A stretch of DNA of 64,000 nucleotides from Clostridium sp. CAG:417 (GTDB taxonomy: Bacteria > Bacillota_I > Bacilli_A > RF39 > UBA660): NCBI GenBank assembly GCA_000432835.1, contig FR890374.1, positions 25,485-89,484 on the forward strand, written 5' to 3'. Positions within the stretch are counted from its first letter, which is position 1; every line of letters starts with the position of its first letter. The notes below the pieces were generated by a model, which worked only from the letters and a program-made list of their open reading frames with translations, was not told the origin of the DNA and ran no database searches. Position numbers and translations under genes: made by a program. Positions 3,419 to 45,846 of the stretch are shown in pieces.

Positions 3419-3444
3419 ATTAAATACACGTATTTGTGTATTTT

Positions 3445-5215: not shown

Positions 5216-5378
5216 ACTCTCACCTTAATTATATAATAACATTAAATACTTCAATTGTTTTTTATTTGTGCTTATTTTTACGTCAACTTTATTTAAATTA
5301 ATAGTTATTAATATTAATTATATTATTTATGAGATATACTTTTGTTATGTAGTAAATATTATTTGGTAGGAATTTTTT

Positions 5379-11148: not shown

Positions 11149-11152
11149 TATT

Positions 11153-14392: not shown

Positions 14393-14469
14393 TTGATTTT
14401 ACAGATATCTTTTACAAAGTGGTTTATTGATGTTATAATTAATATGTTAAAGATTTAGGAGGAAAGAAG

Positions 14470-15261: not shown

Positions 15262-15273
15262 AAGGAGGAAAAT

Positions 15274-16077
15274 ATGATTGATATAAAAAATGTAACAATG
15301 AAGTTTGATATGGGAATTGAAAAAGGTTTTTCATTTAAACAATTGTTTATTAATATGCTTGATCCAAGAGAAAGAAAGAAAAACAAAAAGAAAAAAAGTG
15401 TTTTTGTAGCATTGAATGATGTTTCATTTCATGTTGATAAGGGTGAAGTAGTTGGTTTAATTGGTAGTAATGGTGCTGGAAAGTCTACTTTATTGAAAGT
15501 TGTTAGTGGTGTTATGAAACCTACAAAAGGTAATGTAACTGTCAATGGTTCTATTGCTCCAATGATTGAATTAGGAGCAGGTTTTGATGCTGAATTAACA
15601 GCTAGAGAGAATATTTATTTAAATGGAGCAGTTTTAGGTTATTCAAAGAACTTTATTGATCAAAAATTTGAGGAAATTGTCGATTTTTCTGAGTTACGAG
15701 ATTTTTTGGATGTTCCAATAAAAAACTTTTCTTCTGGTATGACAGCTAAACTTGCATTTGCAATTGCTACTGTTGTTGATCCAGAGGTTCTGATTGTAGA
15801 TGAAATTTTATCAGTCGGAGATATTAAGTTTCAGGAAAAAAGTAGAAATAAAATGATGAGCATGATTAATGGTGGTACTACTGTGTTATATGTATCACAT
15901 TCTCTGGAAAGTATAAGAGAATTATGTACTAAGGTAGTATGGTTGGAACATGGTACAATGAAGATGATAGGTGATCCTGATACTATTTGTGATACATATT
16001 ACCGCTTTCAAATGGGTGAACCTATCGATATGAAAAAGAGTAAGAAGGATAATAAGAGAAAAAAACAAGATAAGTAG
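15274..16077 (+). CDS. ABC transporter ATP-binding protein (Wzt/TagH-like, no C-terminal carbohydrate-binding domain)
   Basis: Walker A GSNGAGKST, signature FSSGMTAKLAFA, Walker B LIVDEILSVGD, and a Lys-rich C-terminal tail. Confidence 0.85.
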   Translation: MIDIKNVTMKFDMGIEKGFSFKQLFINMLDPRERKKNKKKKSVFVALNDVSFHVDKGEVVGLIGSNGAGKSTLLKVVSGVMKPTKGNVTVNGSIAPMIELGAGFDAELTARENIYLNGAVLGYSKNFIDQKFEEIVDFSELRDFLDVPIKNFSSGMTAKLAFAIATVVDPEVLIVDEILSVGDIKFQEKSRNKMMSMINGGTTVLYVSHSLESIRELCTKVVWLEHGTMKMIGDPDTICDTYYRFQMGEPIDMKKSKKDNKRKKQDK

Positions 16078-16091
16078 TTGTGGAGGATAAT

Positions 16092-18668
16092 ATGAATATA
16101 TTAGGCAGAAATTATATAAAATCATCTGGAAAATTAAGGGTTGTTAGGGAAAAAAATAAAATAGTAATAGAGAATAATTCCGATATAAAACAAAAATTAA
16201 TTTTTTATAAATCGATAAAAACAGATAATAAAAGATTAACAATTAATTCTGTTTCAAATATTAATACAGAGGAAAATTGTACAATAAAAATTTTAAATAG
16301 AAAGTTTAGAGTTATTCAATCAGTTGATATGAATACTAAATCATTTTTTTCTAATTTACCTAAAAAGGTTTTTATAGGGCTTTCAATTTTACCAAATGCT
16401 AAGATTGAAATTGATTCTTTGGAGGTTTCCTTTGAAAAAGAAGATGCAAGTATTAAGGAATATTTTTCTGGTAATATATTGTTAATTTGTCCTGGGTATC
16501 CAATGGTAAAAAATAAATATTTATTTTCTTTTATTCATTCAAGGGTGCAAGCTTATAAGGAAAATAAATTGAATGTTGATGTTGCAGTTGTTCATAGTGA
16601 ATATATTGAAAAAACTGAATTTGCTACTTTTGAAAATGTTGATTATATAAGAACTGGATACAATCAAATAAGAAATTTATTACAAGTTAAAAAGTATGAT
16701 AAAATTTTAATACACTTTTTTGATCCTGCCTATTTTCAATTGTTAGAACCACAGGATTTATCGAATACTCAAATTATTTTATATTCTCATGGTACTGATG
16801 CCTTGTATAGAGCTTTTGATGTGATTGGACGTCCATACTTTGTTTCAGATTATGTTGTTCCAGAATCATTCACTAAAACTTTTGCTTTGAGGGATTATTA
16901 TATAAAAAAATATAATAATCTGCCAAATGTGAAATTTGTGTTTGTGTCAAATTGGGCTAAAAAGATGAGTGAGGAATTACTGAAAATAAAATATAATAAT
17001 GCAGAAGTTATACCTTGCTTTATAGATGAAAAGCAATTTCCATATACTGAAAAGGATCCAGAATTAAGAAAAAGAGTTTTTGTGCTTAGAAAGTTTGATG
17101 ATTTAAGTACTTATTCTATTGATATTGATGTTAGAGTAATTTTAGAACTTAGTCATAGAAAATGTTTTAATGACATGGAATTTTCAATTTATGGTGATGG
17201 AGGAATTCATGATAAGTTGGTTGAACCATTAAGAAAGTTTTCTAATGTTCATATATATAGAAAATTTTTATCGCATGATGAAATTAAAATGATGCAAAAA
17301 GAAAATGGTATAGGCCTTTTTGCAACAAGATTTGATACACAGGCTGTGTCTTCATGTGAGGCAGCAATGGCAGGTTGTGTTGTTGTAAGTTCTAAAAATG
17401 TTGGAACTTGTGAGTACATAGATCCTAAAATAGGTGCTTTTTGTGAAACAGAAAATATTATCGAATATGCTGACCTAATCGAAGAATTATATAATGATCC
17501 AAAATTGTTTAAAACAATGTCTGAGAAGATGCATGATTCTGTTATGAAAACGTGTAGTTATAAGTATTCTATAAAAAAAGATATGGATATGATACTTAGT
17601 TTTGATAAGACTGAAAAAATTAAGGTTCCTGATATAAAGAAAAATCCTATATTGAGTATTGTTATTCCTTCTTATAATGTTGGTAAGTATATTAAAGGTG
17701 GTGTAAAATCACTTTTACGTTCTAAATATGCATCTGACTTGGAAATAATTATTGTGAATGATGGCTCTAAGGATGATACAGTCGCTAAAAGTAACGAATT
17801 ATTGAGTAATTATCGTGGTAAGAATCCTATTATAAAAATAATAGATAAGGAAAATGGTGGACATGGTTCTACAATTAATAAGGGAATTGAAATAGCTACT
17901 GGTAAGTATTTTAGACTTATGGATGGCGATGACTATTATATTACTGAAAATTTAGATAAGTTATTGGAAAAATTAAAGGACGAAGATAGTGATATAGTTC
18001 TAACAAATTATATAGAGGATTTTGCTGTTACAGCTGTTTATAATCCTACTAAATTTTATCCTAATTTGGTACCTGGTGTTCAATATAATTTGGATGAAAT
18101 GTATTATAATGGTAATGAATATGGATTTATAATGTTTGGCCCATTATTACCAACCTCAACATATAAAACATCCATATTAAAAAATGCTAATTTTAAAATC
18201 GATGAACATTGTTTCTATGTAGATATGGAATACAATTTAGTTGGGTATATAAATGCCAAAACAGTTAGTTATTATCCTTTTGATATTTATAACTATTATT
18301 TAGGACGACAGGGACAATCTATTTCAAAAGAATCATATAAGAAAAATATTTTACATCACGAAAAAGTATGTTTAAGATTAATAGATTATTATACTGAAAA
18401 AGAAAAGGAATTATCAGAAAGTAAGAAGGCTTATCTTAATAATTGTATTATTGTTCCTATGTGCAAAAGGCAGTATGAACTTACTACAGAAATGTTTAAA
18501 AATAATGAACATTTTATATCATTTGATAGAAAATTAAAAAAATATCCACAATTTTATAATAATACTTCAATTGCTGGAAGAAGAGTTAAGATACATAGAC
18601 TAACTAACGGACACTTTATATGGATGAATGAAGTTTTTATAAAATTAGGTAAATTGATTAGGAGGTAA
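16092..18668 (+). CDS. Multidomain glycosyltransferase (N-terminal beta-rich domain + GT1/GT4-like + GT2)
   Basis: Start at 16092 follows GGAGGA. The central region has GT-B features. The C-terminal third has a GT2 signature (LSIVIPSYNVGKYIKGGVKSL...IIIVNDGSKDDT...MDGDDYY). Confidence 0.7.
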   Translation: MNILGRNYIKSSGKLRVVREKNKIVIENNSDIKQKLIFYKSIKTDNKRLTINSVSNINTEENCTIKILNRKFRVIQSVDMNTKSFFSNLPKKVFIGLSILPNAKIEIDSLEVSFEKEDASIKEYFSGNILLICPGYPMVKNKYLFSFIHSRVQAYKENKLNVDVAVVHSEYIEKTEFATFENVDYIRTGYNQIRNLLQVKKYDKILIHFFDPAYFQLLEPQDLSNTQIILYSHGTDALYRAFDVIGRPYFVSDYVVPESFTKTFALRDYYIKKYNNLPNVKFVFVSNWAKKMSEELLKIKYNNAEVIPCFIDEKQFPYTEKDPELRKRVFVLRKFDDLSTYSIDIDVRVILELSHRKCFNDMEFSIYGDGGIHDKLVEPLRKFSNVHIYRKFLSHDEIKMMQKENGIGLFATRFDTQAVSSCEAAMAGCVVVSSKNVGTCEYIDPKIGAFCETENIIEYADLIEELYNDPKLFKTMSEKMHDSVMKTCSYKYSIKKDMDMILSFDKTEKIKVPDIKKNPILSIVIPSYNVGKYIKGGVKSLLRSKYASDLEIIIVNDGSKDDTVAKSNELLSNYRGKNPIIKIIDKENGGHGSTINKGIEIATGKYFRLMDGDDYYITENLDKLLEKLKDEDSDIVLTNYIEDFAVTAVYNPTKFYPNLVPGVQYNLDEMYYNGNEYGFIMFGPLLPTSTYKTSILKNANFKIDEHCFYVDMEYNLVGYINAKTVSYYPFDIYNYYLGRQGQSISKESYKKNILHHEKVCLRLIDYYTEKEKELSESKKAYLNNCIIVPMCKRQYELTTEMFKNNEHFISFDRKLKKYPQFYNNTSIAGRRVKIHRLTNGHFIWMNEVFIKLGKLIRR

Positions 18669-18671
18669 TAT

Positions 18672-19940
18672 ATGAAAACTAAATATTTATTAATTGGAGC
18701 TGGAATTTCAAATTTAACATTTGCTAATTATGTTAAGGATGATTATTTAATTGCTGAAAAGGAAAATGAAGTAGGTGGCTACTGTAGAACTATTAGTAGA
18801 AATGGATTTGTGTGGGATTATGCGGGACATTTTTTCCATTTTAATACCGAAGAATTTAAGAAAAAATTTTTAGCAAAGGTTCCAAAAAATGAAATTATAA
18901 CACAGGATAAATGTACAAAAATTTTATATAATAAAAAGTTAATTGATTATCCGTTTCAAACTAATATACATCAGCTAGAAAAGGAAGAATTTATTGATTG
19001 TTTGTATGATTTATTTAATAAGGAAGAAAAGGAAAACTATGATAGCTTTTTGGACATGTTATATGGAAAATTTGGACGTTCAATTACAGAAAAATTTTTA
19101 AAGCCTTATAATGAAAAATTATACGCTATTGACTTAACTAAATTAGATAAAGATGCTATGGGAAGATTTTTTCCTTACGCTAATAAAGAGCAAATTATAA
19201 ATAATATGAAGAACTCTAAGGATGTATCTTATAATAATTCTTTTTTGTATCCTAAAAAGGGAGCAGAAACTTTTATTAAGATTTTGTATGATAATTTAGA
19301 TAAGAAAAAGATTTTATTAAATACTAGAATTGTAGATATAGATGTAAAAAATAAAGTAGCAACAACTGATAAAGGTGAAAAAATTGAATATGAATATTTA
19401 GTTAATTCTTCACCACTTAATCACTTTTTACAATTATTTAATGATGATAGAATTAAAAGTTTACAAAAAGAATTATCATATAATAAGGTTCTTGTGTTTA
19501 ATCTAGGATTTAATAAAAAGTCTAAATTGGTTAATGAACACTGGTTGTATATTCCTGATAAGAAATGTAATTATTATAGAATTGGCTTTTATGATAATAT
19601 TTTGAATTCTGATAGGTTAAGTATGTATGTTGAGATTGGTTATTCTAAAGATGCTGTCATTACTAATGAAGAAATTGATAGACAACTTAAATTAACTTTA
19701 GAAAATTTAAGAGATCAAGATATTATAGATGATGATACAAAATTGATTGATCATTGTGCTATTGTTATGGATCCAGCATATGTTCATATTGAAAAGGAAA
19801 CCGATCAAAAAATAAAAGCTTTATTCAATGATTTTGCAAAGAATAACATTTATTGTATTGGAAGATATGGTGCGTGGACGTATTGTTCAATGGAAGATTG
19901 TATGTTACAGGCAAAGAATTTATATGAAAAACTATCTTAA
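18672..19940 (+). CDS. FAD-dependent UDP-galactopyranose mutase-like protein
   Basis: Rossmann FAD motif LLIGAGISNL, then VGGYCRT and GHFFHF, then C-terminal GRYGAWTY. These match the Glf hallmarks (IGGNSYD, HxYGPHIFHT, GRLGTYRY). Confidence 0.65.
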   Translation: MKTKYLLIGAGISNLTFANYVKDDYLIAEKENEVGGYCRTISRNGFVWDYAGHFFHFNTEEFKKKFLAKVPKNEIITQDKCTKILYNKKLIDYPFQTNIHQLEKEEFIDCLYDLFNKEEKENYDSFLDMLYGKFGRSITEKFLKPYNEKLYAIDLTKLDKDAMGRFFPYANKEQIINNMKNSKDVSYNNSFLYPKKGAETFIKILYDNLDKKKILLNTRIVDIDVKNKVATTDKGEKIEYEYLVNSSPLNHFLQLFNDDRIKSLQKELSYNKVLVFNLGFNKKSKLVNEHWLYIPDKKCNYYRIGFYDNILNSDRLSMYVEIGYSKDAVITNEEIDRQLKLTLENLRDQDIIDDDTKLIDHCAIVMDPAYVHIEKETDQKIKALFNDFAKNNIYCIGRYGAWTYCSMEDCMLQAKNLYEKLS

Positions 19941-19963
19941 TGTTAAATGGGAGGAAGTATTAT

Positions 19964-21778
19964 ATGAGTAAGTATATCCATTATTTTGTAGGCAAGAATA
20001 AAGAAATACCTCCATTTAGTGAAAAGTGTTTAAACTCTTGGAAAGAATATATGAGTGAAGAGTATGAAATTAAACTTTGGACACTTGATGATTTATATAC
20101 AATAGATGATGATATAGCTGTCGAAATTGCAAGAATAGATAATTATAATATCAGTAAGGACTTTTTAGAAATATATGCCCTATATAAATATGGTGGTATT
20201 TATGTTGATCAAAATATTAAAATTGTTGAACCTATATGTGATTTATTAGCGAATAGTAACTCTTTTTTGGGAATGGATGAAAGACATAGAATTTGTTCTA
20301 ATATATGGTATGAAAAAAATGCAAAAAGTGATTTCTCACAGAGAGTATATGAATGCTTTAAGGAAAAAATGGCGGAAGGCGAATATAATCCGTTTTTTGT
20401 CGGTTTACAATTTATATTTAAAGAGGTTCTTAATGATTTTGATTTTACTAATAAAAAAACTCAATATTTGGATAATGGTGTAGTTGTTTATAGTTGTGAT
20501 TATTTTTATCCTTTATCTTATGATGGTCACACTAAATCTATCTCTAAAAATACGAGAACTAAAAATTATTTTCATTATGATTTTATTACTTTAAAGGGAA
20601 GGCTAAAAAATATAATTTATAGTATTTTTGGTAGCTATATATCTACTTTCTTGTTTAGTGTTGCTAGAATGTTAAAGAAAGTAATAAAAATACTATTATT
20701 TCCACTTTTAAAGTTTAAAGAATTTAGGAAAAAGGATACTAAAAAGCATAGAGAACTTTTGCAACTAACACTTAATGAAATAGATTCGTGTAAAAATAAA
20801 GACTATGTTGCTTTTCATAATCCGGCCTTTACAGGAGTTTCTAGTGCAACTGTAGAATTATTTGAAAATAGTGTTCCTTGTGGTGAATTAATTAGTTCTA
20901 AAGAAATTAAAATGGTTCGAAATCGTATTAAAAGTAATAATATAAAGGAAGTTATCTTTAGTGGATTTGTTATTGGGTGGTATAAGCTAGCAAAATTGCT
21001 TCATAAAGATGGTGTTGTTGTAAAGACATATTTTCATGGAAGTCACTCACAATATCTTGATGAATATGGGTGGAAGATGAATAAACAAATTTATTTGTTA
21101 GAGAAAAAGAACATAGTTTCTGAAATGGCTTTTTGTAAAGAATCAATTATTGACTTTTATAAAGATAAAGGATGTAACGCAACCTTTTTGAAAAATTTAG
21201 TTAACATTAATTTTGATATTAATAAGAAGAAAAAAGATAAAAATAGGTTTGTAATAGGTGTTTATGCTGTTCAGGCAACAAATACTAGAAAAAATGTGTT
21301 CTCTAGTTTGGCAAGTGCTTATTTTGTTGGAAAAGAAATAAAAGACAAGGAAGTTATATTAGATATTGTTCCTAGATCTGAAACAACGGTTGCTTTTTGT
21401 CATCTTCTTGGTATAAAAACAACTGGTGTTGATAAAGGTATTCCTCGTGAACAATTGTTAAATAGAATGAGTAATACAGATATAAATCTTTATGTTACAT
21501 TTAGTGAATGCGCGCCTATGGTACCTCTTGAAAGTTTTTATGTAGGTGTTCCATGTTTAACAGGAAATAATCATCATTATTTTAAAAATAGCGAGTTAGA
21601 ACAATATTTGGTTGTTAATAATGAGAATAATCCTTTAGATATATATAAGAAAATAATTTATTGCAATGATAATAGAAAAAAAGTCCTTAAATTGTATGAT
21701 GAATTTAGTGTGAAAAATTTAAATAGTGGTAAAGAATTAGTAAAACGTTATATAGAATTAGGTGATAATAGTGATTAA
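19964..21778 (+). CDS. Two-domain glycosyltransferase (N-terminal GT32/Caps_synth-like DXD domain + C-terminal GT4-like Rossmann domain)
   Basis: ATG at 19964 follows GGGAGGA. The N-terminus (YIHYFVGKNKEIPPFSEKCLNSWKEYMSEEYEIKLWTLDD) looks like capsular-polysaccharide-synthesis/GT32 proteins. The C-terminus has a GT-B E...P...E pattern. Confidence 0.6.
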   Translation: MSKYIHYFVGKNKEIPPFSEKCLNSWKEYMSEEYEIKLWTLDDLYTIDDDIAVEIARIDNYNISKDFLEIYALYKYGGIYVDQNIKIVEPICDLLANSNSFLGMDERHRICSNIWYEKNAKSDFSQRVYECFKEKMAEGEYNPFFVGLQFIFKEVLNDFDFTNKKTQYLDNGVVVYSCDYFYPLSYDGHTKSISKNTRTKNYFHYDFITLKGRLKNIIYSIFGSYISTFLFSVARMLKKVIKILLFPLLKFKEFRKKDTKKHRELLQLTLNEIDSCKNKDYVAFHNPAFTGVSSATVELFENSVPCGELISSKEIKMVRNRIKSNNIKEVIFSGFVIGWYKLAKLLHKDGVVVKTYFHGSHSQYLDEYGWKMNKQIYLLEKKNIVSEMAFCKESIIDFYKDKGCNATFLKNLVNINFDINKKKKDKNRFVIGVYAVQATNTRKNVFSSLASAYFVGKEIKDKEVILDIVPRSETTVAFCHLLGIKTTGVDKGIPREQLLNRMSNTDINLYVTFSECAPMVPLESFYVGVPCLTGNNHHYFKNSELEQYLVVNNENNPLDIYKKIIYCNDNRKKVLKLYDEFSVKNLNSGKELVKRYIELGDNSD

Positions 21779-22682
21779 ATATAAAGTAGTAATATCTCCA
21801 AATAGTAATTATTACAATGCTATTTCATACAGTTTTGGGGAAGATGCAGTATTTGAATTTGATGAAAAAAATTCAATTAAGAAAATTGAAAAATATGCCT
21901 CAAGCCTTGGCGGTGTTCAAAATATAGTTTTCTATAACTTAACAGAAGCAAATGATTTATTATTGAATATGCTATCTAATAATTCAAAAAAATATATTAT
22001 TTTTGAATATTCTGTATCTGAATTATCTGATTATAAGAAATTAAATGAATTACTTTTACTTTTAAAATATATAGATATGAATTTAGTAGATGGTATAATA
22101 TGTATTGACTATGCGACTTATATGTTGTTAAAGGATAAATATGGAGCTAAATATTTAAAACTTGATGTTTTACAAACAAAAGGATCTACTGGCAACAGTA
22201 TTGGTATTATTGATGATTCTAGTAGTGTTTATGGTAATACAATTAATGAACTTAGTGCCATTACGTTGACAAACTACAAAAATGTTAAGACGTATAAGCC
22301 TATTAGGGCTGTTTCCAAATTTGCTAAAAGATTTAATCTAAAATTGATTAAATCAAAAAGTATATCTGAGTGTATTGATGGAAATACTATTAATTTTTAT
22401 GGACAATTTTCTTCTATATGTTATCCTTTTATATTAGAAAGTATGGATAGAGGTATTCCTTGTATTGTTGGAAATACTGACTTTTTCGATGGTAATGAAG
22501 TATTAAAAAGTAATCTAGTATTGAAGAGTGATGATGATATTAATGAAATGAATGATAAAATATTATCTGTAGAAAAAAACAAACAGATTATTTTGAACGA
22601 ATATGCTAAGTTTAGAAAGGAATATACAAAGTTAGCAAAAAAAAGTATAAAAGATATAAAAGAATTATTTAATTTAAGATAA
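21762..22682 (+). CDS. Hypothetical cytoplasmic protein in the glycopolymer cluster
   Basis: 306-aa ORF with coding periodicity, an overlapping start, and no recognised motif. Confidence 0.45.
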   Translation: MIIVIKYKVVISPNSNYYNAISYSFGEDAVFEFDEKNSIKKIEKYASSLGGVQNIVFYNLTEANDLLLNMLSNNSKKYIIFEYSVSELSDYKKLNELLLLLKYIDMNLVDGIICIDYATYMLLKDKYGAKYLKLDVLQTKGSTGNSIGIIDDSSSVYGNTINELSAITLTNYKNVKTYKPIRAVSKFAKRFNLKLIKSKSISECIDGNTINFYGQFSSICYPFILESMDRGIPCIVGNTDFFDGNEVLKSNLVLKSDDDINEMNDKILSVEKNKQIILNEYAKFRKEYTKLAKKSIKDIKELFNLR

Positions 22683-22793
22683 TAATTATTTGTTTGATTA
22701 TTATCTTTTTTCTTTTGTATACTTGAAAAAACCTATATTGTAATTTATAATGTACATATAAGATTGGATACATACTTAGGGGGATATAGGTAT

Positions 22794-23936
22794 ATGGCAA
22801 ATGCAGTAACAAGAGAAAGAAACTCTAATCATGAATTAATGAGAATTTTATCAATGTTTTTCATAGTGTTAGGACACGTATTTTTATTTGGAAAGTTATT
22901 AGATACACCAAATAAGTCAATGAGTATTATTTATTATTTTTTCGAATTTATATTAATAGTACATGTTAATTCTTATGTTTTAGTATCTGGATATTATCAG
23001 TCTAAATCTAAATTTAAGCAAAAACAGTTGTTGAAAATAATTAATGCTAGTTGGTTCTATAGAGTTGTGATATTATTACTTTTTTCTATTTTAGGAATTA
23101 TTTCCGTCAGTAAGGTGCAAGTTTTAAAAGACTTGTTACCAGTTACTATTGATAATTATTGGTTTATAAAAGTGTATATTTTATTATATTGTTTATCCCC
23201 TTTTATTAATAAATTAATATCTAGTATTAGTAAAAATTTTTATCAGAAAATGTTGTTGTGTGGATTTCTAGTTTTTTCAATAATCCCAGCAATTACTGGT
23301 GGAGAAATGTTTTTTAATAATGGTTATTCTTTATATGGTTTTATATATTTATACTTAGTAGGAGCCTATCTTAGAATATATCCATTGGAGAATAGTTACT
23401 TTTTTAAAATCTTTTCTAAAAAGTTATTTAGAGTAATTATGATTTGTTTATTTTTGGGATGTGCTCTACTAAATAATATATTATTTTACTATGGTAAACA
23501 TATTTCTGGTACTAATCAAATTTTAGATTTAGTCGCAAGTTATATAGATTCAGCCTCATTAGCTTATAGTAACCCTATAATTATAATACAAAGTGTTGCT
23601 TATTTTTCTATTTTTACCACTTTAGATATAAAGTCTAAATTTATTAATAAGTGTTCTAGTTTGATGCTAGGAGTATACTTTATTCATGAAAATAATTATG
23701 TAAGAAGTAAAATATATGGATGGCTTGGCCTATTATCTGTTAATAGTAGTAAGAGTTGGTTTATATTCTATGCATTTTTAATGACTATAGCAATATTTGT
23801 AGGTTCTATGATTATAGAAAGATTGCGAGTAGCATTGTTTAAGTTCATTTCTAATAGAAAAATATCAGAAAAAATTAGAAACAGATATTACAAATGGTTG
23901 AGTGAACTTTACATTATTAGATCATCTCAAGGATAA
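22794..23936 (+). CDS. Acyltransferase family 3 (OatA/OafA-like membrane O-acyltransferase)
   Basis: N-terminal NHELMRILSMFFIVLGHV, which is the AT3 R/H motif, and about 10 TM helices. ATG at 22794 follows AGGGGGAT. Confidence 0.8.
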   Translation: MANAVTRERNSNHELMRILSMFFIVLGHVFLFGKLLDTPNKSMSIIYYFFEFILIVHVNSYVLVSGYYQSKSKFKQKQLLKIINASWFYRVVILLLFSILGIISVSKVQVLKDLLPVTIDNYWFIKVYILLYCLSPFINKLISSISKNFYQKMLLCGFLVFSIIPAITGGEMFFNNGYSLYGFIYLYLVGAYLRIYPLENSYFFKIFSKKLFRVIMICLFLGCALLNNILFYYGKHISGTNQILDLVASYIDSASLAYSNPIIIIQSVAYFSIFTTLDIKSKFINKCSSLMLGVYFIHENNYVRSKIYGWLGLLSVNSSKSWFIFYAFLMTIAIFVGSMIIERLRVALFKFISNRKISEKIRNRYYKWLSELYIIRSSQG

Positions 23937-25119: not shown

Positions 25120-26340
25120 TTGAAAAGAATAATATTTATATTTATTTTTTGTTTGTTGGTAATGCCTATTAGTGTTTTAGCTCAAGAAACTAATACTAAT
25201 AATAGTCAAGATAATAATAATACAAACACTAATGTGGAAAAAAATAGTGAAAGTGAAGAAACATCTCTTATAAGTAATGCTGTTAGTGGTCTATTAATGG
25301 AAGAGTCTACTGGGGAAATTATTTTTGAAAAAGATAAGGATAAACAGGTAGCGGTGGCTTCTATGACAAAGATGGTCGCTCAAATAATAATATTAGAGAA
25401 CATAGAATCAGGAAATATTAAATGGTCTGATGTAGTAACAGCTTCTAAAAATGCAGCAGATATGGGTGGCTCACAAATATATTTAGCAGCTAATGAAAAG
25501 ATGACAGTAAGAGATTTATTTAAGGGTATTTCTATGGCTAGTGCTAATGATGCGGTGGTTGCTATGGCAGAATATATAGCAGGAAGTGAGGATAAGTTTG
25601 TCAAAAAAATGAATGACAAAGTAAAGAAGTTAGGACTTAAAAACACGGTATTTAAAAATGCTACCGGACTTGATGAAGATGGACATTTTTCTAGTGCCTA
25701 TGATATGGCAATAATTGCTAGAACATTACTTAGTCATCAAGAAATATTAGAATTTTCTGGAGTTTATGAAGATTATTTAAGAGTTAATACACCAAACAAA
25801 TTTTGGCTTGTTAATACAAATAAATTAGTAAGAACTTATAATGGAGCAGATGGACTAAAGACTGGGCATACGGATAATGCTAAGTACTGCTTGGCAGTGA
25901 CAGCAAAACGAGATGGAATGAGACTTATTGCAATAGTTTTGGGAGAAGATAATGCTAAAGTAAGAAATAGTGAGGCAGCTCAATTATTGGATTATGGATT
26001 TAATAATAAGCAAATTCAATTGATTAAAAAGAGTACGGATGAAATAAAGAAAATTAAATTAGACAAGGCAACAGAAAAGTCTATTACTATAGTGCCAAAA
26101 TATGATGTTAGTATCCTTAAGGATAAAGGAATTAGTAACACTAAATATAAAACGAGTGTAAAAGTAGACAAGATAGTATTACCTTTGAAAAAAGGTGATG
26201 TGGTAGGAAAAATATCAGTATTAGATAATAATAAAGTAGTGGCAACACAAGATTTAGTAGCTACTAAAAATGTTGATAAATTAAACTTTTTTCAATTGTT
26301 TATGAAAAATATTACAAAAATTAGTAGTGGTATATTATAG
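25120..26340 (+). CDS. dacF: D-alanyl-D-alanine carboxypeptidase (PBP5/DacF-like, peptidase S11)
   Basis: Signal peptide; SxxK active site ASMTKM; SxN (SANDA) and KTG (LKTGHT) motifs. The position upstream of spoIIAA-sigF matches the Bacillus dacF-spoIIA synteny. The gene symbol is assigned from synteny only. Confidence 0.8.
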   Translation: MKRIIFIFIFCLLVMPISVLAQETNTNNSQDNNNTNTNVEKNSESEETSLISNAVSGLLMEESTGEIIFEKDKDKQVAVASMTKMVAQIIILENIESGNIKWSDVVTASKNAADMGGSQIYLAANEKMTVRDLFKGISMASANDAVVAMAEYIAGSEDKFVKKMNDKVKKLGLKNTVFKNATGLDEDGHFSSAYDMAIIARTLLSHQEILEFSGVYEDYLRVNTPNKFWLVNTNKLVRTYNGADGLKTGHTDNAKYCLAVTAKRDGMRLIAIVLGEDNAKVRNSEAAQLLDYGFNNKQIQLIKKSTDEIKKIKLDKATEKSITIVPKYDVSILKDKGISNTKYKTSVKVDKIVLPLKKGDVVGKISVLDNNKVVATQDLVATKNVDKLNFFQLFMKNITKISSGIL

Positions 26341-26496
26341 ATAAAATTTAATCATAATACTTAAATTTATGTAATATTGTTAGTAGTTAACATTCCTTGA
26401 ATATATGAGTAATAAATAATATTTGTTTTCACAAAATAAAAGTTTCGCATTGAACAAAATAGAAATTTGTAATATAATGTTAGAGACATTAAATGC

Positions 26497-26535
26497 TGTC
26501 TAGTCTATGTCTGCGACTAGATGGTATTTTTTTAT
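26497..26535 (+). terminator. Predicted Rho-independent terminator/attenuator hairpin
   Basis: A 7-bp stem (TCTAGTC ... GACTAGA) is followed by TGGTATTTTTTTATTT. Confidence 0.45.
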
Positions 26536-26583
26536 TTATAGAAAAAATACCGATAACTTTTGAAAGAAAGGAGGAGGTATATA

Positions 26584-27060
26584 ATGCCTAAAACAAAGTT
26601 TCAGAACTTTATATTTACTTTAATAACTACTGTTGTAATGGCTTATTGTATGGTAGTTTATAGCGTAGCAATAAATTTATCTGAGGGTTTAATCAATCAA
26701 ACTTTTCTAATTGCCTTAAAAGAGTTTCCCATTGAAGGGATAATAGTATTTGTATTAGCGTTTTTTGTTGCAAGTCCTATTGCAAAAAAATTGGCATTTA
26801 GAATAGTAAATCCTAAAGAGGATAATAAAATGTTTGTTATTGTATCAATTCAAACATTTACAGTGCTTATTATGGTAGGATTAATGAGTATATATGCTTT
26901 ATTTGCACAATACTTAATAAATAGTAATATTGTATGTAATTACTTGATATTATATTGTAAGAACTTTATAATGGCTTATCCTTTACAAATCTTTTTTGTA
27001 GGACCATTAGTAAGAAATATTTTTAGAATAGTATTTAAAAAACAATTAAAACAAATATAG
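26584..27060 (+). CDS. Small polytopic membrane protein, function unknown
   Basis: ATG follows a perfect AAGGAGGAGG RBS. Four TM helices. Confidence 0.55.
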   Translation: MPKTKFQNFIFTLITTVVMAYCMVVYSVAINLSEGLINQTFLIALKEFPIEGIIVFVLAFFVASPIAKKLAFRIVNPKEDNKMFVIVSIQTFTVLIMVGLMSIYALFAQYLINSNIVCNYLILYCKNFIMAYPLQIFFVGPLVRNIFRIVFKKQLKQI

Positions 27061-27175
27061 TAAAAACTTAATTTATATGAAGAATTATTATAGATGAAAA
27101 ATCGCATTTGGCGATTTTTATTTACTTTGAATATATTAATAAGTATAATTATTTTAGATAATGGAGTTTGATAAT

Positions 27176-27904
27176 ATGAAAAGATCTAGAAAAATATCAA
27201 TAGGAACAATAGTATTGTTTGTAGTTTGTTCATTAATATATTATAGAAATGATTTAGCTGTTTTAATTGGAAATAAGACAAATAGTATTAAAGTTGTCAA
27301 TGTTAATGATAATACTTCTTTAGAAAATAGTAATATTCCTGATTATAGTGGTAATAGCTATATAATTATAAATAATAATAAACCAAACTTTTCTGATAAT
27401 GATATGTCATTAACTGGTGAAGTTTATAGTGAACTTGATTCCTTAGGAAGATGTGGAGTAGCTTTTGCAAGAGTTGGAAAAGATACTATGCCTACAGAAG
27501 AGAGGGGGAGTATAGGAATGATAAAACCATCTGGATGGCATACAATAAAGTATGATATTGTAAATGGTAAATATCTTTATAATCGTTGTCATTTAGTAGG
27601 ATATCAATTAACAGGTGAAAATGCTAATCCTAAAAACCTTATTACTTGTACAAGATATATGAATACTGTAGGAATGTTAGAATTTGAAAATAAAGTAGCA
27701 TCATATGTTAAAAAGACAAATAATCATGTATTATATAGAGTTACTCCAATATTTCGTAATGATAATTTATTAGCAACAGGGGTTCAAATAGAAGCAGAAT
27801 CAATAGAAGACTTAGGTAAGGGAATTAGTTTTAATGTTTTTGTTTATAATGTTCAACAGGGAATAGAAATTGATTATAAAACAGGTGATAGCAAGTTAAA
27901 GTAG
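27176..27904 (+). CDS. Membrane-anchored DNA/RNA non-specific endonuclease (EndA/NucA-like, DNA-entry nuclease family)
   Basis: Signal-anchor, then the nuclease core NRCHLVGYQLTGENANPKNLITCTRYMN. I read this as the DRGH-type beta-beta-alpha-metal nuclease motif with its downstream Asn. Confidence 0.7.
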   Translation: MKRSRKISIGTIVLFVVCSLIYYRNDLAVLIGNKTNSIKVVNVNDNTSLENSNIPDYSGNSYIIINNNKPNFSDNDMSLTGEVYSELDSLGRCGVAFARVGKDTMPTEERGSIGMIKPSGWHTIKYDIVNGKYLYNRCHLVGYQLTGENANPKNLITCTRYMNTVGMLEFENKVASYVKKTNNHVLYRVTPIFRNDNLLATGVQIEAESIEDLGKGISFNVFVYNVQQGIEIDYKTGDSKLK

Positions 27905-28018
27905 GAAGTATTACTTCCTTTTTTTGTTATATTTTGTCGAAAGAATAATTTGTAATGTTTTGTCGAATTGGTATAAAAAAAATAAAAAATGGTCTATATT
28001 TTTATAGAGGTGAAAATA

Positions 28019-28347
28019 TGTTATATACACAAGTTATCAATGGAATACTATATATGGGTTTTGAAGGGGTGATTAATGATCAGGCAATATTAGAATTAAG
28101 TCGGGAAATAGATTATATGTTATATAGACAAGGAATAAATTATTACGCAATTGATTTTAATAATCTAAATATTGAAAGTAGTAAATTTATTAATTTATTT
28201 CAAAATAAGTTAGTAGAAATATTTTTAAGATGTGGTAGTGTAGTTTTATGTGGAATGAATAATATTATGAGGAAGGTAATAGGAGATAGAAACAATCTTT
28301 TTTATGTAAATAATAAGGCAGATATATTTAAAGTTTTGAGTTTATAA
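28019..28347 (+). CDS. spoIIAA: Anti-sigma-F factor antagonist (STAS domain)
   Basis: Matches B. subtilis SpoIIAA block by block (ILYMGFEGVINDQA..., IDFNNLNIESSKFINLF for the phospho-Ser region DSSGLG, SVVLCGMNNIMRKVIG). RBS AGAGGTG upstream. Lies directly upstream of sigF. Confidence 0.7.
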
Positions 28348-28356
28348 AGGAGAAAT

Positions 28357-28992
28357 ATGGATACTATTTTACAATACGAAAATTTAGTGAGAAGCATAAT
28401 TAGTAAATACACATATTATGGTGATTATGAGGATTTATATCAAGTGGGAATGATGGGACTTGTAAAGGCATGTAAAAATTATAAAGAGAGTACAGCAAAA
28501 TTTTCAACTTATGCTTATAAATATATATTAGGAGAAGTAAATACATTTATTAGAGAGAGTCAACCTGTAAAAATTAGTAAGGATATTATTAGACTTAATA
28601 AACAAATAGAAAAATGTCGTGAATTATTACATCAAAAATTACAACGAGAACCTAGTGATTTAGAAGTTTCACTTTTTTTGGAAATAGATGAAAATAGGAT
28701 AAGAGAAGTTAAAAACTTAATGCAGAAAGTAGAAAGTCTTGATTCCGTAAAAAGTGAGGATGAAGATAGTTATTATAATTCTATTATCACCTATGATGAT
28801 AATTTAGATTCAATGCATTTAGATTTACAAGAGCAGTTAAAAAATTTAAATGATGATGAGAAAAAACTTATTTATGCAAGATATTATGATGGTTATACAC
28901 AAAGTGAATTGAGTAGAGAACTTGGAATGAGCCAAGTACAAATTTCTAGGAAAGAATCAAAAATTTTACAAAAACTAAAGGTTAATCTTTAG
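28357..28992 (+). CDS. sigF: Sporulation sigma factor F-like (group 3 sigma-70)
   Basis: Region 2 (DLYQVGMMGLVKACKNY...FSTYAYKYILGEV), region 3 (VKISKDIIRLNKQIEKCRE) and region 4 (YTQSELSRELGMSQVQISRKESKILQKLK) match B. subtilis SigF very closely (GISQVQVSRLEKKILKQIK). The N-terminal region 1.2 is short. Confidence 0.8.
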   Translation: MDTILQYENLVRSIISKYTYYGDYEDLYQVGMMGLVKACKNYKESTAKFSTYAYKYILGEVNTFIRESQPVKISKDIIRLNKQIEKCRELLHQKLQREPSDLEVSLFLEIDENRIREVKNLMQKVESLDSVKSEDEDSYYNSIITYDDNLDSMHLDLQEQLKNLNDDEKKLIYARYYDGYTQSELSRELGMSQVQISRKESKILQKLKVNL

Positions 28993-29044
28993 TTTTTTTG
29001 TATATAAAGAAATTATTGGTAAAGAATAATACTGGTGATTAAAA

Positions 29045-29491
29045 ATGATTAATAAAAAGTATGATGAGATAGTAGAAAGACATAAACCTACAGAACAGAG
29101 AAGTAAAAATTCATTGATTGCATTTTTAATAGGAGGACTAGTAGGTGCAATTGGAGAGGGATTAATCCAAATTTATTGTAGTATTTGGCATATTTCTAGA
29201 ACTGTAAGTTCTGTTTATATGATTATAACCTTAATTTTTATAGCTGCTTTAGCAACAGCGATTGGTTTTTTTGATAAATGGGTTAATTTTGCAAGATGTG
29301 GTTTATTAATACCTATTACTGGTTTTTCACATTCAATGATGAGTGCGGCTTTGGAATATAAAAGAGAAGGACCTATATTTGGTATCGGAAGTAATACATT
29401 TAAATTGGCTGGTTCGGTAATTGTTTATGGAGTAGTATCAGCTTGGACCTTTGGTCTCATTAGGCTAATTATAGGAGGTAGCTTGCTATGA
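29045..29491 (+). CDS. spoVAC: Stage V sporulation protein AC
   Basis: Small 4-TM protein of about 150 aa, conserved SpoVAC pattern, first gene of a spoVAC-AD-AE operon. Confidence 0.8.
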   Translation: MINKKYDEIVERHKPTEQRSKNSLIAFLIGGLVGAIGEGLIQIYCSIWHISRTVSSVYMIITLIFIAALATAIGFFDKWVNFARCGLLIPITGFSHSMMSAALEYKREGPIFGIGSNTFKLAGSVIVYGVVSAWTFGLIRLIIGGSLL

Positions 29492-30480
29492 CATTTAAAT
29501 ATGATAAAGTCTATCTTAATGAAACTTATACTGTTGTAGGTCCATATGAAGATAAAGGACCACTTGGAAAATATTTTGACAATAGTTATGAAGATTTATA
29601 TTGTGAAGCTGATTCTTGGGAAAAGGCAGAAACTAAGTTATTAGAAGAAAGTATGAAAAAAGCACTTAGAAAAAATAAATTAACAAAAGAAAATATTGAT
29701 TTAGTTATTTCTGGTGATTTATTGAATCAGGTAACTTCTTCTTGTTATGCGGCAAGTAAAATAAATAAGCCATTTTTAGGAATTTATAGTGCATGTGCTT
29801 CAAATGTAGAAGGACTTATTATTGGATCAAATTTTATTAACAGTGGAATTATTAATAATTGTTTATGTGGTACTAGTTCACATAATATGTCTAGTGAAAA
29901 ACAATTTAGAAATCCTACCGAATATGGTGCACCTAAACCTGAAACTGCTACCTTTACAGCAACAGGTGGAGCGAGTGCTGTGATTTCTAATAAAAAAAGT
30001 AATATTAAAATAGAGAGTGCTACTATCGGGAGAATTGTAGATTATAATCAAAAGGATGCTTTAAATATGGGTGCAGTGATGGCTTGTGCAGCTGCAGATA
30101 CATTAAAAAGACATTTAGATGATTTAAATCGTAAAGAAGATTACTATGATTTAATTTTAACTGGTGATTTAGGTCTTTATGGTAGAGAAATATTGAAAGA
30201 GTTTATGATGAAAGAACATAAAATTAATATAAGTTGTAACTATAATGATTGTGGTGTAATGCTTTATGATTTGGAAGAACAAAAAGAAGTCTTGGCCGGA
30301 GGTAGTGGTCCTGTATGTAGTGCATTGGTATTATATGGTTTTATTTTAAATGAAATGAAGAAAAAGAATATTAAAAAAGTTTTATTAATTGCTACTGGGG
30401 CATTATTTAGTCCAACTATGCTTTATCAAAAAGAAAATATTTTAAGTATTGCTCATGCAATTAGTTTGGAGGCTATATAA
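29488..30480 (+). CDS. spoVAD: Stage V sporulation protein AD (thiolase-like fold)
   Basis: 330 aa, KASIII/thiolase-like (GIYSACASNVEGL, GGSGPVCSAL), overlapping start codon. Confidence 0.8.
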   Translation: MTFKYDKVYLNETYTVVGPYEDKGPLGKYFDNSYEDLYCEADSWEKAETKLLEESMKKALRKNKLTKENIDLVISGDLLNQVTSSCYAASKINKPFLGIYSACASNVEGLIIGSNFINSGIINNCLCGTSSHNMSSEKQFRNPTEYGAPKPETATFTATGGASAVISNKKSNIKIESATIGRIVDYNQKDALNMGAVMACAAADTLKRHLDDLNRKEDYYDLILTGDLGLYGREILKEFMMKEHKINISCNYNDCGVMLYDLEEQKEVLAGGSGPVCSALVLYGFILNEMKKKNIKKVLLIATGALFSPTMLYQKENILSIAHAISLEAI

Positions 30481-30833
30481 TGGAAAAAATACTTTTATCA
30501 TTCTTATTTTGTGGAGCAATTTGTTTAATAGCGCAAATAATTTTAGATAATACAAAACTTACTCCTGGACATATAACAAGTATATTTGTTGTACTTGGAG
30601 CCTTACTTGATACATTTAATATTTATGATATTATTGTAGAAAAAGTAGGTGGTGGTGCGATGGTACCAATTACTAGTTTCGGTCATCAACTAATTCATGG
30701 TGGACTTCATCAGGCCGAGGGTGCTGGAGTATTTGGTTTAGTAATGGGAATGTTTGACTTAACGGCTTCTGGAATAAGTGCAGCTATCATATTTTCATTT
30801 TTCCTTACTTTAATATTTAAACCTAGAAATTAA
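30480..30833 (+). CDS. spoVAEb: Stage V sporulation protein AE (SpoVAEb)
   Basis: 117-aa membrane protein, SpoVAC paralog, start overlaps the spoVAD stop. Confidence 0.75.
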   Translation: MEKILLSFLFCGAICLIAQIILDNTKLTPGHITSIFVVLGALLDTFNIYDIIVEKVGGGAMVPITSFGHQLIHGGLHQAEGAGVFGLVMGMFDLTASGISAAIIFSFFLTLIFKPRN

Positions 30834-30862
30834 AAAAACTAAGAAAATTCTTAGCTTTGTTT
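30832..30862. terminator. Bidirectional Rho-independent terminator between the spoVA operon and the convergent RNHCP gene
   Basis: A-run, then stem CTAAGA-AAAT-TCTTAG, then CTTTGTTTGG. Confidence 0.5.
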
Positions 30863-31162
30863 GGATATTTCTATTATCATATCCATGTTATCATCTTTGG
30901 CCATAATATTTTTATGATGTTCGTGACATTTTAAACACTCGTATATTATCTTATATGTATCTTTAAATTTTTCAATGCCAACGGGTTTTAATAATCCTTG
31001 GCATTTATTTTGTCTATCACCCGGATTAATATCTATGTGAATAGAGTATAGACAATAAGGACAATGATCTCTTGCTGTATAATTTAGAGGTAGGACTTTT
31101 TTTCCACAATTTTGACATATAAATTCTTCATCACGCATCACAAATTTTTTCATTAAAATCAC
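30851..31162 (-). CDS. RNHCP-domain zinc-ribbon protein
   Basis: Two CxxC pairs (CQNCGKK, CPYC, CLKC) and the RDHCP motif characteristic of the RNHCP family. Confidence 0.6.
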   Translation of the reverse strand: MILMKKFVMRDEEFICQNCGKKVLPLNYTARDHCPYCLYSIHIDINPGDRQNKCQGLLKPVGIEKFKDTYKIIYECLKCHEHHKNIMAKDDNMDMIIEISKQS

Positions 31163-45396: not shown

Positions 45397-45846
45397 ATGA
45401 AATTTTTGAAGGAACATGCAAAACTTATAGCGATAGTTGTTATCTTTGTTTTAGCAGTAATAATTTTATTTTCAATTTATAATAGTATCTTTTTAAATAA
45501 TTCCTCTAAGTATGGTGATAGATTAGAAGGAATTGATGAAGTTAAAGTTACTAGTAATTTAGAAAAAGAAATCAAAGAAAATATTAAGACACTTGATATT
45601 ACTAAGTCAGTAGAAATAGAAGAATCAGGTAAAATTATTAATGTTATAGCTTTAGTTAATGATGATATTGAAGTAAATAAAAGTAAGGAAATTGGAAATA
45701 AAGTTATAGAAAAATTATCTGATAAACAGAAAAAATATTTTGATGTACAAATCTTTATTAAAAAAAGTAGTAAAGATGAGAAGTTTCCTATAATTGGTTA
45801 TAAACATCATAATAAAGACAATATTACTTGGACTAAAGATAGGTAG
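45397..45846 (+). CDS. Hypothetical membrane-anchored protein
   Basis: 149 aa, N-terminal TM, no recognised motif. Confidence 0.45.
   Translation: MKFLKEHAKLIAIVVIFVLAVIILFSIYNSIFLNNSSKYGDRLEGIDEVKVTSNLEKEIKENIKTLDITKSVEIEESGKIINVIALVNDDIEVNKSKEIGNKVIEKLSDKQKKYFDVQIFIKKSSKDEKFPIIGYKHHNKDNITWTKDR

Follow-up and report, generated by a model that had tools for sequence, protein, structure and literature searches.

The partner switch of SpoIIAA, SpoIIAB and SpoIIE, which activates sigma-F, is the paradigm for the establishment of two cell fates in a dividing bacterium, and the gene for SpoIIAB normally lies inside the spoIIA operon. In the RsfA/RsfB-UsfX-SigF system of Mycobacterium tuberculosis, the STAS antagonist RsfA is regulated without phosphorylation and the anti-sigma factor UsfX does not act as a kinase. 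To our knowledge, the STAS antagonists characterised so far all act on GHKL-type anti-sigma factors, and we know of no STAS protein that binds a sigma factor directly. Turicibacter sanguinis encodes contiguous SpoIIAA (J3478_01580), SpoIIAB (J3478_01575) and sigma-F (J3478_01570) (PMC13492147). For the order RF39, the accessible text of a recent survey reports that the KOs for spoIIAB and spoIIE are reduced in presence or absent in genomes with a completeness above 95%, and predicts that these bacteria sporulate nonetheless (Field, Bowerman and Hugenholtz 2024, PMC10868615).

The DNA analysed here, a single stretch of 64 kb (the window), contains a STAS-domain gene (28018-28347, + strand, 109 amino acids, with an ATG start at 28018 and a TAA stop ending at 28347) whose start codon is preceded by the ribosome-binding site AGAGGTG. 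It is followed by a SigF-like sporulation sigma gene (28357-28992, + strand, 211 amino acids, ATG at 28357 with the RBS AGGAG upstream). The original prediction had placed the STAS start at 28019, which is corrected here by 1 nt; the 9 nt that it gave between the STAS stop codon and the sigma start codon were confirmed and leave no room for a gene of about 146 amino acids, so that its statement that spoIIAB could not be accommodated between the two genes stands.

Upstream of this pair lies a gene for an S11 D-Ala-D-Ala carboxypeptidase (25120-26340, + strand; Pfam Peptidase_S11, 2e-76, and PBP5_C), which gave no DacF-specific match in the NCBIfam profile scan and is dacF-like by position only. 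In some relatives (loci L007, L016 and L051) an S11 carboxypeptidase gene immediately precedes the STAS gene. In the window a DUF2798 membrane protein gene (26560-27060, + strand; Pfam DUF2798), with a terminator-like hairpin at its 3' side (27097-27119, + strand), and an inserted gene for a DNA/RNA non-specific endonuclease (27161-27904, + strand; Pfam Endonuclea_NS_2, 7e-24) intervene. The endonuclease was missing from this position in all 44 GTDB loci. A second terminator-like hairpin 3' of the endonuclease gene (27903-27919, + strand), consisting of a 7-bp stem followed by a T-run, is predicted to insulate the STAS-sigma operon from the genes upstream. Downstream of the sigma gene, the three-gene form of spoVA was identified with Pfam and NCBIfam scans in the order spoVAC (29045-29491, + strand; Pfam SpoVAC_SpoVAEB, and TIGR02838 with 158 bits, below the cut-off of 164), spoVAD (29488-30480, + strand; TIGR02845 with 423.6 bits, above the cut-off of 411.8) and spoVAEb (30480-30833, + strand; TIGR02839 with 137.4 bits, above the cut-off of 131.1), while spoVAA and spoVAB are missing from the locus. 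The synteny had been called textbook, which is correct for the carboxypeptidase upstream and spoVAC/AD/AEb downstream, but not entirely so given the two unrelated genes and two terminators before the STAS gene and the missing spoVAA and spoVAB. A second sporulation sigma factor, SigK/E-like, is also encoded in the window.

The window STAS protein, which is identical to CDC61563.1 of 'Clostridium sp. CAG:417', gave no Pfam match at E<=1 and scored 17.5 bits with TIGR02886, far under the cut-off of 114.75. As Pfam STAS (PF01740) was matched by 28 of 37 family members, the homology of the window protein to STAS is transitive only. The top PDB match of the family profile was SpoIIAA (1auz). An AF2 model of the protein (pLDDT 89.5, pTM 0.82) had RsbS 6jhk and SpoIIAA 1tid, 1h4y and 1th8 as its top Foldseek matches (TM 0.76-0.83), with a TM of 0.82 to RsbS/SpoIIAA; structure 8ih8, which we take to be a complex of the M. 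tuberculosis RsfA/UsfX-type system, was also among the matches. The STAS fold (beta-beta-alpha-beta-alpha-beta-alpha-beta-alpha), which the original prediction had named as a point at which it could be refuted, was thus confirmed, and the 109-amino acid ORF encodes a true STAS protein, albeit a highly divergent one, descended from SpoIIAA. The gene is under strong purifying selection, with a dN/dS (omega) of 0.03-0.14 in closely related pairs.

The arrangement was compared with that in related loci, comprising 44 GTDB species loci and four more distant metagenome loci (L051 and L053-L055), all from uncultured gut Bacilli and, where identifiable, from the order RF39; two of them (L024 and L042) belong to Ca. 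Faecimonas, which has been placed in RF39 (PMC8035907). The STAS-sigma pair, consisting of two genes only, was present in 47 of 47 related loci examined, with a STAS-to-sigma gap of -10 to +15 nt in 40 of the 44 GTDB loci, and the most distant family members (L051, L053-L055) have the same arrangement. Identical loci were found on 12 independent contigs which, together with the recurrence in the 44 GTDB and four distant loci, rules out chance or an assembly artefact. The spoVAC gene directly follows the sigma gene in most loci, with one to three unrelated genes between them in a minority.

No SpoIIAB-type gene was detected in the 64-kb window, either by Pfam scans covering every ORF of 90 or more amino acids, in which the sole HATPase_c domain was that of a hybrid histidine kinase (6683-9073), or by phmmer with a PDB-verified SpoIIAB query, which gave no match at E<=10. 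There was likewise no SpoIIAB match at E<=10 within 7 kb either side of the STAS-sigma pair in any of the 47 related loci, and no gene for a GHKL-fold anti-sigma partner in the 64 kb or in the related loci, the DNA covered being 64 kb of this genome and about 14 kb per related locus. The published absence of spoIIAB and spoIIE in RF39, as described in the accessible text, depends on KO presence/absence calls made with KOfam thresholds (PMC10868615); since the clade is fast-evolving and its own STAS and sigma proteins fall below curated cut-offs, an equally divergent SpoIIAB could escape KOfam.

The phosphorylation site was examined by alignment of the STAS family. The window protein carries E53-S54-S55-K56-F57, with S55 aligned with Ser58 of SpoIIAA, so that the Ser-Ser pair reported originally is present, although its reading as a retained phospho-site was not borne out: neither the Asp nor the Gly of D-S-x-G is present, the Ser58 position is Asn in the nearest homologues (52-61% identity), and only 7 of the 47 family members have Ser or Thr in this column (K12, Q7, N6, E5, D4, S4, F3, T3 and single others). 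The segment containing the phospho-loop was the most variable of the protein (entropy of 2.22 bits for the beta3-alpha2 loop and 2.41 bits for the alpha2 N-terminus), and the C-terminal halves of alpha1 (0.63 bits) and alpha2 (0.44 bits) were near-invariant, surface exposure of the invariant residues being deduced from helix periodicity. The alignment thus shows that constraint on the phospho-serine loop has been lost across the family. These data bear on the explanation that the operon has simply been rearranged, with a normal spoIIAB (and spoIIE) elsewhere in the genome and the classical partner switch still running. Ser55 in the window protein is what such an explanation would expect, and a gene in trans could lie beyond the 64 kb covered, but the serine is not kept even in the closest homologues, the motif Asp and Gly are lost, the two-gene arrangement is invariant across all 47 loci, and the spoIIAB and spoIIE KOs are, in the accessible text of the survey, reported as reduced or absent in RF39 (PMC10868615). 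We regard it as very improbable, and as the least probable of the readings considered.

The sigma gene, which has the SpoIIAA homologue on one side and the spoVA operon on the other, encodes all of sigma70 regions r2, r3 and r4 (Pfam). Its best NCBIfam matches were SigBFG (150.5 bits) and spore_sigF (148 bits), followed by SigG (119 and 111 bits) and SigB (88.5 bits), all of them sub-cut-off; for TIGR02885 (SigF) the 148 bits compare with an equivalog cut-off of 321.45. The best PDB match was SigF (1l0o_C, 1.6e-25), and on these scores SigF is the best-matching subfamily. Residue 8 aligns with residue 38 of Geobacillus stearothermophilus SigF (1l0o_C), so the N-terminal shortening described previously is real, with a size of about 30 rather than about 35 residues. 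The short length is clade-wide, as homologues (120 among the matches listed) were 179-218 amino acids long and nearly all 210-215.

Upstream of the STAS gene, two Spo0A boxes with the sequence TGTCGAA were identified, a distal one at 27935-27941 (+ strand, -83 from the STAS ATG) and a proximal one at 27961-27967 (+ strand, -57). Of 47 loci, 45 have a TGNCGAA box within 200 nt on the 5' side of the STAS gene, where the background rate is 0.058 per 200 nt; in these 45 loci the box was a perfect TGTCGAA except in L054 and lay at -49 to -73, mostly -57 to -62, and most related loci carry another box 26 nt (or 36 nt) further upstream. Conserved TAGAAA and TATAnT elements downstream of the proximal box look sigma-A-like rather than sigma-H-like, and in most loci the STAS start codon has the ribosome-binding site AGAGGTGA in front of it. 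A forespore-type (sigma-F/G-like) promoter-like element was found upstream of spoVAC (29000-29031, + strand; GTATA, a 20-nt spacer and AATAATA). Relatives carry a GTAT[AG]-N16-19-CATACTA-like motif at this position, the strict pattern being present in 30 of 40 loci; the copy in the window, with its 20-nt spacer, fails the strict pattern. A further forespore-type promoter-like match, at 26330-26359, is weak, as 7 matches were found and 2.9 were expected.

A decaying pathway, in which the lineage would be non-sporulating and the STAS and sigma genes would be remnants or co-opted for a function outside sporulation, would agree with the reduced RF39 sporulation gene set described in the accessible text of the survey (PMC10868615) and with the accessible literature on RF39, in which no report of spore formation was found. 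Four related species have a sigma gene broken into two ORFs, a possible sign of decay, and the SpoVA proteins evolve more slowly than both the STAS and the sigma protein. Against this, the omega values of the STAS gene are low, the Spo0A boxes keep their position in 45 of 47 loci, forespore-type promoters lie upstream of spoVAC, spoVAC/AD/AEb are intact throughout the related loci, and the window encodes the SigK/E-like second sigma factor. Decay is, in our estimation, improbable.

The explanation that we favour, and hold to be rather probable as a whole, is a reduced spoIIA operon working without kinase and phosphatase. The locus would be the spoIIA-spoVA sporulation locus of an AT-rich gut bacterium with a small genome, in whose clade an ancestral spoIIAA-spoIIAB-sigF operon would have been reduced to two translationally coupled genes, one for a divergent STAS protein and the other for a sigma-F with a shortened N-terminus, driven by a promoter with tandem Spo0A boxes. 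Phosphorylation by SpoIIAB and dephosphorylation by SpoIIE would have ceased to operate, and the STAS protein, produced in step with sigma-F, would have kept or acquired a kinase-independent role through a new conserved surface. Between the two options offered originally, spoIIAB in trans or a different control of sigma-F, the evidence favours the latter because of the 47 of 47 kinase-less loci, the decayed kinase-facing loop and the RF39 KO survey as far as its text is accessible (PMC10868615); the step at which sporulation first becomes cell-specific is probably under a control that departs from the Bacillus textbook model.

As to the role of the STAS protein, our tentative guess is that it may bind directly to sigma-F, either holding it or serving as a minimal anti-sigma factor, and that its release in the forespore would free sigma-F; binding of some partner other than the canonical GHKL kinase is the next most likely role. 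More doubtful still is the fuller proposal that the RF39-type sigma-F switch has collapsed to two proteins, with the STAS protein contacting sigma-F directly via its helix-1/helix-2 surface and SpoIIAB and SpoIIE dispensable. The lack of a STAS precedent known to us counts against direct binding, as does a mirror-tree test in which no special STAS-sigma co-evolution was seen (partial r of 0.20, lower than the 0.44 for STAS-SpoVAC).

A different possibility is that a divergent, non-kinase anti-sigma factor is encoded elsewhere, and that the STAS protein is still its antagonist under non-phospho regulation, by analogy with RsfA acting on UsfX in M. tuberculosis. The GHKL-type target of the STAS antagonists so far characterised speaks for it, loss of the phospho-serine and of spoIIE would fit a non-phospho antagonist, and a fast-evolving protein could be overlooked in KO-based absence calls, 64 kb of the genome having been covered. 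However, the beta3-alpha2 loop and alpha2 N-terminus, the canonical kinase-facing region, are the most variable part of the protein, which would be unexpected if a GHKL partner still docked there, and such a gene would be expected within the spoIIA operon, as in Turicibacter (PMC13492147). We judge this possibility to be unlikely, albeit less so than either decay or rearrangement.

On the favoured reading, a reduced operon without kinase and phosphatase, an order of abundant gut bacteria would break the paradigm, having kept sigma-F, the antagonist fold, Spo0A control and forespore-type promoters and dropped the kinase; the SpoIIE phosphatase has reportedly been dropped too in RF39, going by the accessible text (PMC10868615). 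Either fewer parts would suffice for compartment-specific activation of sigma-F, or an unrecognised regulator would exist. If the STAS protein does control sigma-F by direct binding, it would be the first of its family to regulate a sigma factor on its own, and would offer a minimal route to forespore-specific gene activation. The finding also bears on the prediction of spore formers among uncultured gut taxa, and hence on between-host transmission, as marker-gene tools would rate such RF39-type genomes as defective.

In comparison with known systems, the locus resembles the spoIIA region of Bacillus subtilis in the order carboxypeptidase, STAS gene, sigF and spoVA, in its upstream Spo0A boxes, in the STAS fold and in SigF being the best match for the sigma factor. 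Unlike in B. subtilis, spoIIAB is lacking, D-S-x-G is lost and unconserved, the sigma factor is about 30 residues shorter, two unrelated genes separate the carboxypeptidase from the operon, and the promoter elements appear sigma-A-like. The M. tuberculosis system differs in keeping the GHKL-fold anti-sigma factor UsfX, none being found in the window or related loci. Turicibacter sanguinis, like the present species, is a gut member of the Bacillota outside the classical Bacilli/Clostridia models and has all four sporulation sigma factors, but this related lineage retains the three-gene operon where the window species has two genes (PMC13492147). The closest comparison is the reduced gene set of RF39 itself, the same clade, in which sporulation is predicted with spoIIAB and spoIIE reduced or absent; that reduction was already reported in 2024, while the retained STAS gene, the decayed phospho-loop, the two-gene operon, the short sigma factor and the conserved promoter elements are new relative to the accessible text of that report (Field, Bowerman and Hugenholtz 2024, PMC10868615).

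The window has a GC content of ~26% and nearly all of its genes lie on the plus strand. Pfam scans identified a Peptidase_S11/PBP5_C carboxypeptidase (25120-26340, +), a DUF2798 membrane protein (26560-27060, +) followed by a terminator-like hairpin at 27097-27119, and a DNA/RNA non-specific endonuclease (27161-27904, +) with a hairpin at 27903-27919. These precede a STAS-like ORF of 109 amino acids (28018-28347, +), which has the ribosome-binding site AGAGGTG in front and, 9 nt past its end, a sigma factor gene encoding 211 amino acids (28357-28992, +; AGGAG in front), while family scans placed spoVAC (29045-29491, +), spoVAD (29488-30480, +) and spoVAEb (30480-30833, +) downstream. The original prediction, of an orphan spoIIAA and sigF without spoIIAB amid textbook Bacillus synteny, had the coordinates right save for 1 nt (the STAS gene starts at 28018), but passed over the two genes and two terminators that separate the carboxypeptidase from the STAS gene. 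Since 12 independent metagenome contigs, including one of 478 kb, carry identical DNA, the arrangement is not an assembly artefact. A forespore-type promoter pattern (GTATA-N18-CATAATA) was also seen at 26330-26359 (+), ahead of the DUF2798 gene and partly within the carboxypeptidase gene, whose end it overlaps; there were 7 matches to such patterns in the window against 2.9 expected, and this one may be due to chance.

The window's STAS protein matches CDC61563.1 exactly, an entry annotated 'unknown [Clostridium sp. CAG:417]'. It gave no Pfam family match in a direct scan and scored 17.5 bits (E=0.003) against TIGR02886 (SpoIIAA), for which the cut-off is 114.75. A profile of the 8 closest homologues had B. 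subtilis SpoIIAA (1auz) as its best PDB match, with RsbS and G. stearothermophilus SpoIIAA next; the AF2 model (pLDDT 89.5) has STAS topology and retrieved RsbS and SpoIIAA at the top of a Foldseek search (TM 0.76-0.83); and 28 of 37 full-length relatives match Pfam STAS (best 4.5e-15). The homologue profile, the structural model and the relatives' matches together bear out a STAS fold. Only 53 relatives came out of an exhaustive profile search across 1.8 billion representatives.

Regions 2, 3 and 4 are all present in the sigma gene product, which scored 150.5 bits against the SigB/F/G subfamily, 148 bits against the SigF equivalog, 119 and 111 bits against SigG and 88.5 bits against SigB, in each case below the curated cut-off. 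The closest solved structure is G. stearothermophilus SigF (1l0o_C, E=1.6e-25), residue 38 of which pairs with query residue 8, so that ~30 N-terminal residues are missing; the predicted shortening is thus real, with a size of ~30 rather than ~35 residues by this alignment. A longer start is ruled out by the in-frame stop codon of the STAS gene 9 nt upstream. Homologue lengths among the matches listed (n=120) were 179-218 amino acids, nearly all 210-215, and NCBI names the listed homologues only as 'sigma-70 family'. Four related species have two ORFs in place of an intact sigF-like gene (L010, ~7367-8057; L011, ~846-1524; L016, ~5659-6343; L021, ~303-983). The break always falls after ...KACKNYKES, in the loop of region 2.2/2.3, where an insert of ~35 nt brings in a stop codon, a stretch resembling an RBS and a new ATG in a different frame. 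The downstream ORF encodes 175-179 amino acids, with 8-15 new residues ahead of the conserved FSTYAYYYV, and both halves remain open; the split gene could be an early pseudogene or encode a sigma factor that is naturally in two pieces. The window holds a second sporulation-type sigma factor of 347 amino acids (59393-60436, +; best scores 165 bits for SigK and 160 bits for SigE, neither reaching its cut-off), whose gene closely follows that of a rhomboid protease (58059-59213). Its residues 11-219 form the sigma domain, and an extra ~130-amino-acid C-terminal stretch carries a second region-4-like helix-turn-helix (LTEEEKLLVKLRYG).

SpoIIAB was searched for with two phmmer probes, a B. subtilis sequence checked against PDB and, as the verified probe, the G. 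stearothermophilus sequence given in 1til_A, and neither found a match at E<=10 in any ORF of at least 50 amino acids from the window or the fetched related loci. Among the window ORFs of 90 or more amino acids, all of which were scanned with Pfam, there was no PP2C domain and a single HATPase_c domain, in a hybrid histidine kinase of 796 amino acids (6683-9073, +). This protein was rejected as SpoIIAB on its HisKA-HATPase-REC-Hpt architecture; the combination of all four domains in one protein is unusual given the genome size, and it is possible that the kinase provides input to Spo0A phosphorylation. GHKL motifs were not seen on reading the unannotated window ORFs by eye, including a 149-amino-acid ORF at 45397-45846. 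The lack of spoIIAB at the locus is confirmed by these Pfam and phmmer searches of the window. As for a plain spoIIAB encoded in trans, Field, Bowerman and Hugenholtz (2024), using KOfam annotation of genomes >95% complete, record reduced presence or absence of spoIIAB and spoIIE in RF39 in one line of their presence/absence survey (PMC10868615). As far as that line goes, it is independent, genome-wide support that the gene is not simply elsewhere, although KO thresholds can miss fast-evolving proteins, and we regard a trans-encoded copy as very unlikely.

Other features of the window were recorded alongside these searches. The 149-amino-acid ORF encodes a membrane-anchored protein with no family match and precedes the gene for a 678-amino-acid protein with a GGDEF diguanylate cyclase domain (45856-47892, +), in what is a reduced genome. 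At 1026-6611 lies a cell-wall cluster in which a sortase accompanies a surface protein with a thioester domain (TED); the cluster also has a VanW-like protein and, on the minus strand, two VanY-type D,D-carboxypeptidases in tandem. A PYNP-VanY-S11 carboxypeptidase neighbourhood is common to the window and a distant locus (L051). A 15-kb block (9147-23936), directly upstream of the sporulation genes, probably specifies a cell-surface polysaccharide or a teichoic acid. It encodes at least 6 glycosyltransferases alongside a DUF6056 membrane protein, an ABC-2 exporter pair, an acyltransferase and a flavoprotein resembling amine oxidases.

Scanning a single genome from each GTDB species yielded 44 related loci, all from uncultured gut MAGs labelled 'Bacilli', 'Tenericutes' or 'Mycoplasmatota'. 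A sigma gene of ~211 amino acids directly follows the STAS gene in all 44, and 40 of the gaps fall between -10 and +15 nt; the usual order beyond the sigma gene is spoVAC-AD-AEb, an oppositely oriented RNHCP gene and scpA-scpB. An order of STAS gene, sigma gene (212-220 amino acids) and spoVA likewise occurs in four of the most distant family members (L051, L053, L054 and L055), where Pfam annotation of the called genes included no HATPase gene. Two of the 44 loci belong to Candidatus Faecimonas (GTDB order RF39, family CAG-611; 28% GC, 1.4-Mb genome; PMC8035907). The window's own species is missing from the set (best identity 57%), though its FQNKLVEIF fits the search pattern. The protein collection represents this species well, with at least 1000 contigs of up to 1.3 Mb, and in its species-representative genome the region may be absent or masked. 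The RNHCP zinc-ribbon gene (30851-31162, -), convergent with spoVAEb and conserved in 22 related loci, was considered as a Gin/CsfB-like anti-sigma factor and dropped, as its conserved promoter is an extended -10 housekeeping one (TGnTATAAT) and not a forespore promoter. Clustering of all ORFs of the 44 loci gave no third conserved gene beside the STAS-sigma pair; common neighbours, none universal, have on sequence reading the appearance of a diacylglycerol-kinase-like protein, an LTA-synthase-like sulfatase and zinc-ribbon membrane proteins. The main rival explanation, a non-kinase anti-sigma factor of the RsfA/UsfX type, places that protein elsewhere in the genome, and we consider it unlikely.

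Two perfect Spo0A boxes (TGTCGAA), of only 4 in the full 64 kb, lie 26 nt apart at 27935 and 27961. In 45 of 47 loci the 200 nt preceding the STAS start contain a TGNCGAA box (background 0.058 per 200 nt), nearly always as a perfect TGTCGAA at 57-62 nt from the start; in one of the two remaining loci the available sequence begins just 19 nt before that start. A second box, a further 26 or 36 nt upstream, is present in most loci, and the ribosome-binding site of the STAS gene is conserved. When upstream regions were aligned on the proximal box, conserved TAGAAA and TATAnT elements were found downstream of it at sigma-A-like spacing; a sigma-H promoter was provisionally set aside, since TAGAAA-N17-TATAnT describes these elements better. 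Upstream of spoVAC, a strict forespore-type pattern (GTAT[AG]-N16-19-[CA]AHWHTA, typically GTATG...CATACTA) was found in 30 of 40 loci; the window copy, with a spacer of 20 nt, does not match it. Judged from sequence, these signals indicate a putative working cascade from Spo0A to the sigma-F operon and then to forespore genes. Conserved Spo0A boxes and forespore-type promoters are unlike decaying remnants, and a sporulation pathway in decay is accordingly rated improbable.

In B. subtilis SpoIIAA the phosphorylated Ser58 follows directly on Asp57 in D-S-S-G (UniProt numbering), as do the serines of RsbV (D55-S56) and RsbS (D58-S59). Two independent alignments placed Ser55 of the window protein (E53-S54-S55-K56-F57) at the Ser58 position, so that the original prediction was right to put a Ser there, but the motif has lost its Asp and Gly, Asn takes the place of the Ser in the closest homologues (52-61% identical), and the column is mostly not Ser/Thr (47 sequences: K12, Q7, N6, E5, D4, S4, F3, T3 and others). 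Per-column entropy over 43 core sequences was highest in this canonical phospho-serine region (mean 2.22 bits in the beta3-alpha2 loop, 2.41 bits in the N-terminal half of alpha2) and lowest in the C-terminal halves of alpha1 (E-I-D/N-Y-L/M-L-Y-x-Q-G, 0.63 bits) and alpha2 (Q-N-K-L-x-E-I-F-L-x-C-G, 0.44 bits). The gene is under strong purifying selection, as dN/dS was 0.03-0.14 in closely related species pairs with unsaturated synonymous sites; only low-dN pairs were used, and the all-pair median (0.44) was set aside as unreliable because synonymous sites saturate in a 26% GC genome. On this sequence evidence, the constrained surface appears shifted away from the canonical one.

The observation of a missing spoIIAB is therefore confirmed, and the interpretation first placed on it is supported in part. 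The best-supported reading, and one we hold to be reasonably probable, is a reduced spoIIA operon independent of kinase and phosphatase. The STAS gene is predicted to be co-transcribed with that of sigma-F and the two are probably translationally coupled. In such an operon the STAS protein might act directly on sigma-F, a tentative suggestion favoured by the co-transcription and coupling, the lack of a third conserved gene, the decayed canonical partner surface and the invariant new polar helix surface. A crude mirror-tree test of the STAS protein against the sigma and SpoVA proteins gave no specific co-evolution signal and so no support for direct action, for which we know of no precedent. 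The core fact, that spoIIAB is missing in RF39, is already published at the level of a survey entry; in the literature consulted, the retained STAS gene, decayed phospho-loop, two-gene operon and short sigma factor were not found described. In Turicibacter, by contrast, the genes for SpoIIAA, SpoIIAB and sigma-F are contiguous (PMC13492147).
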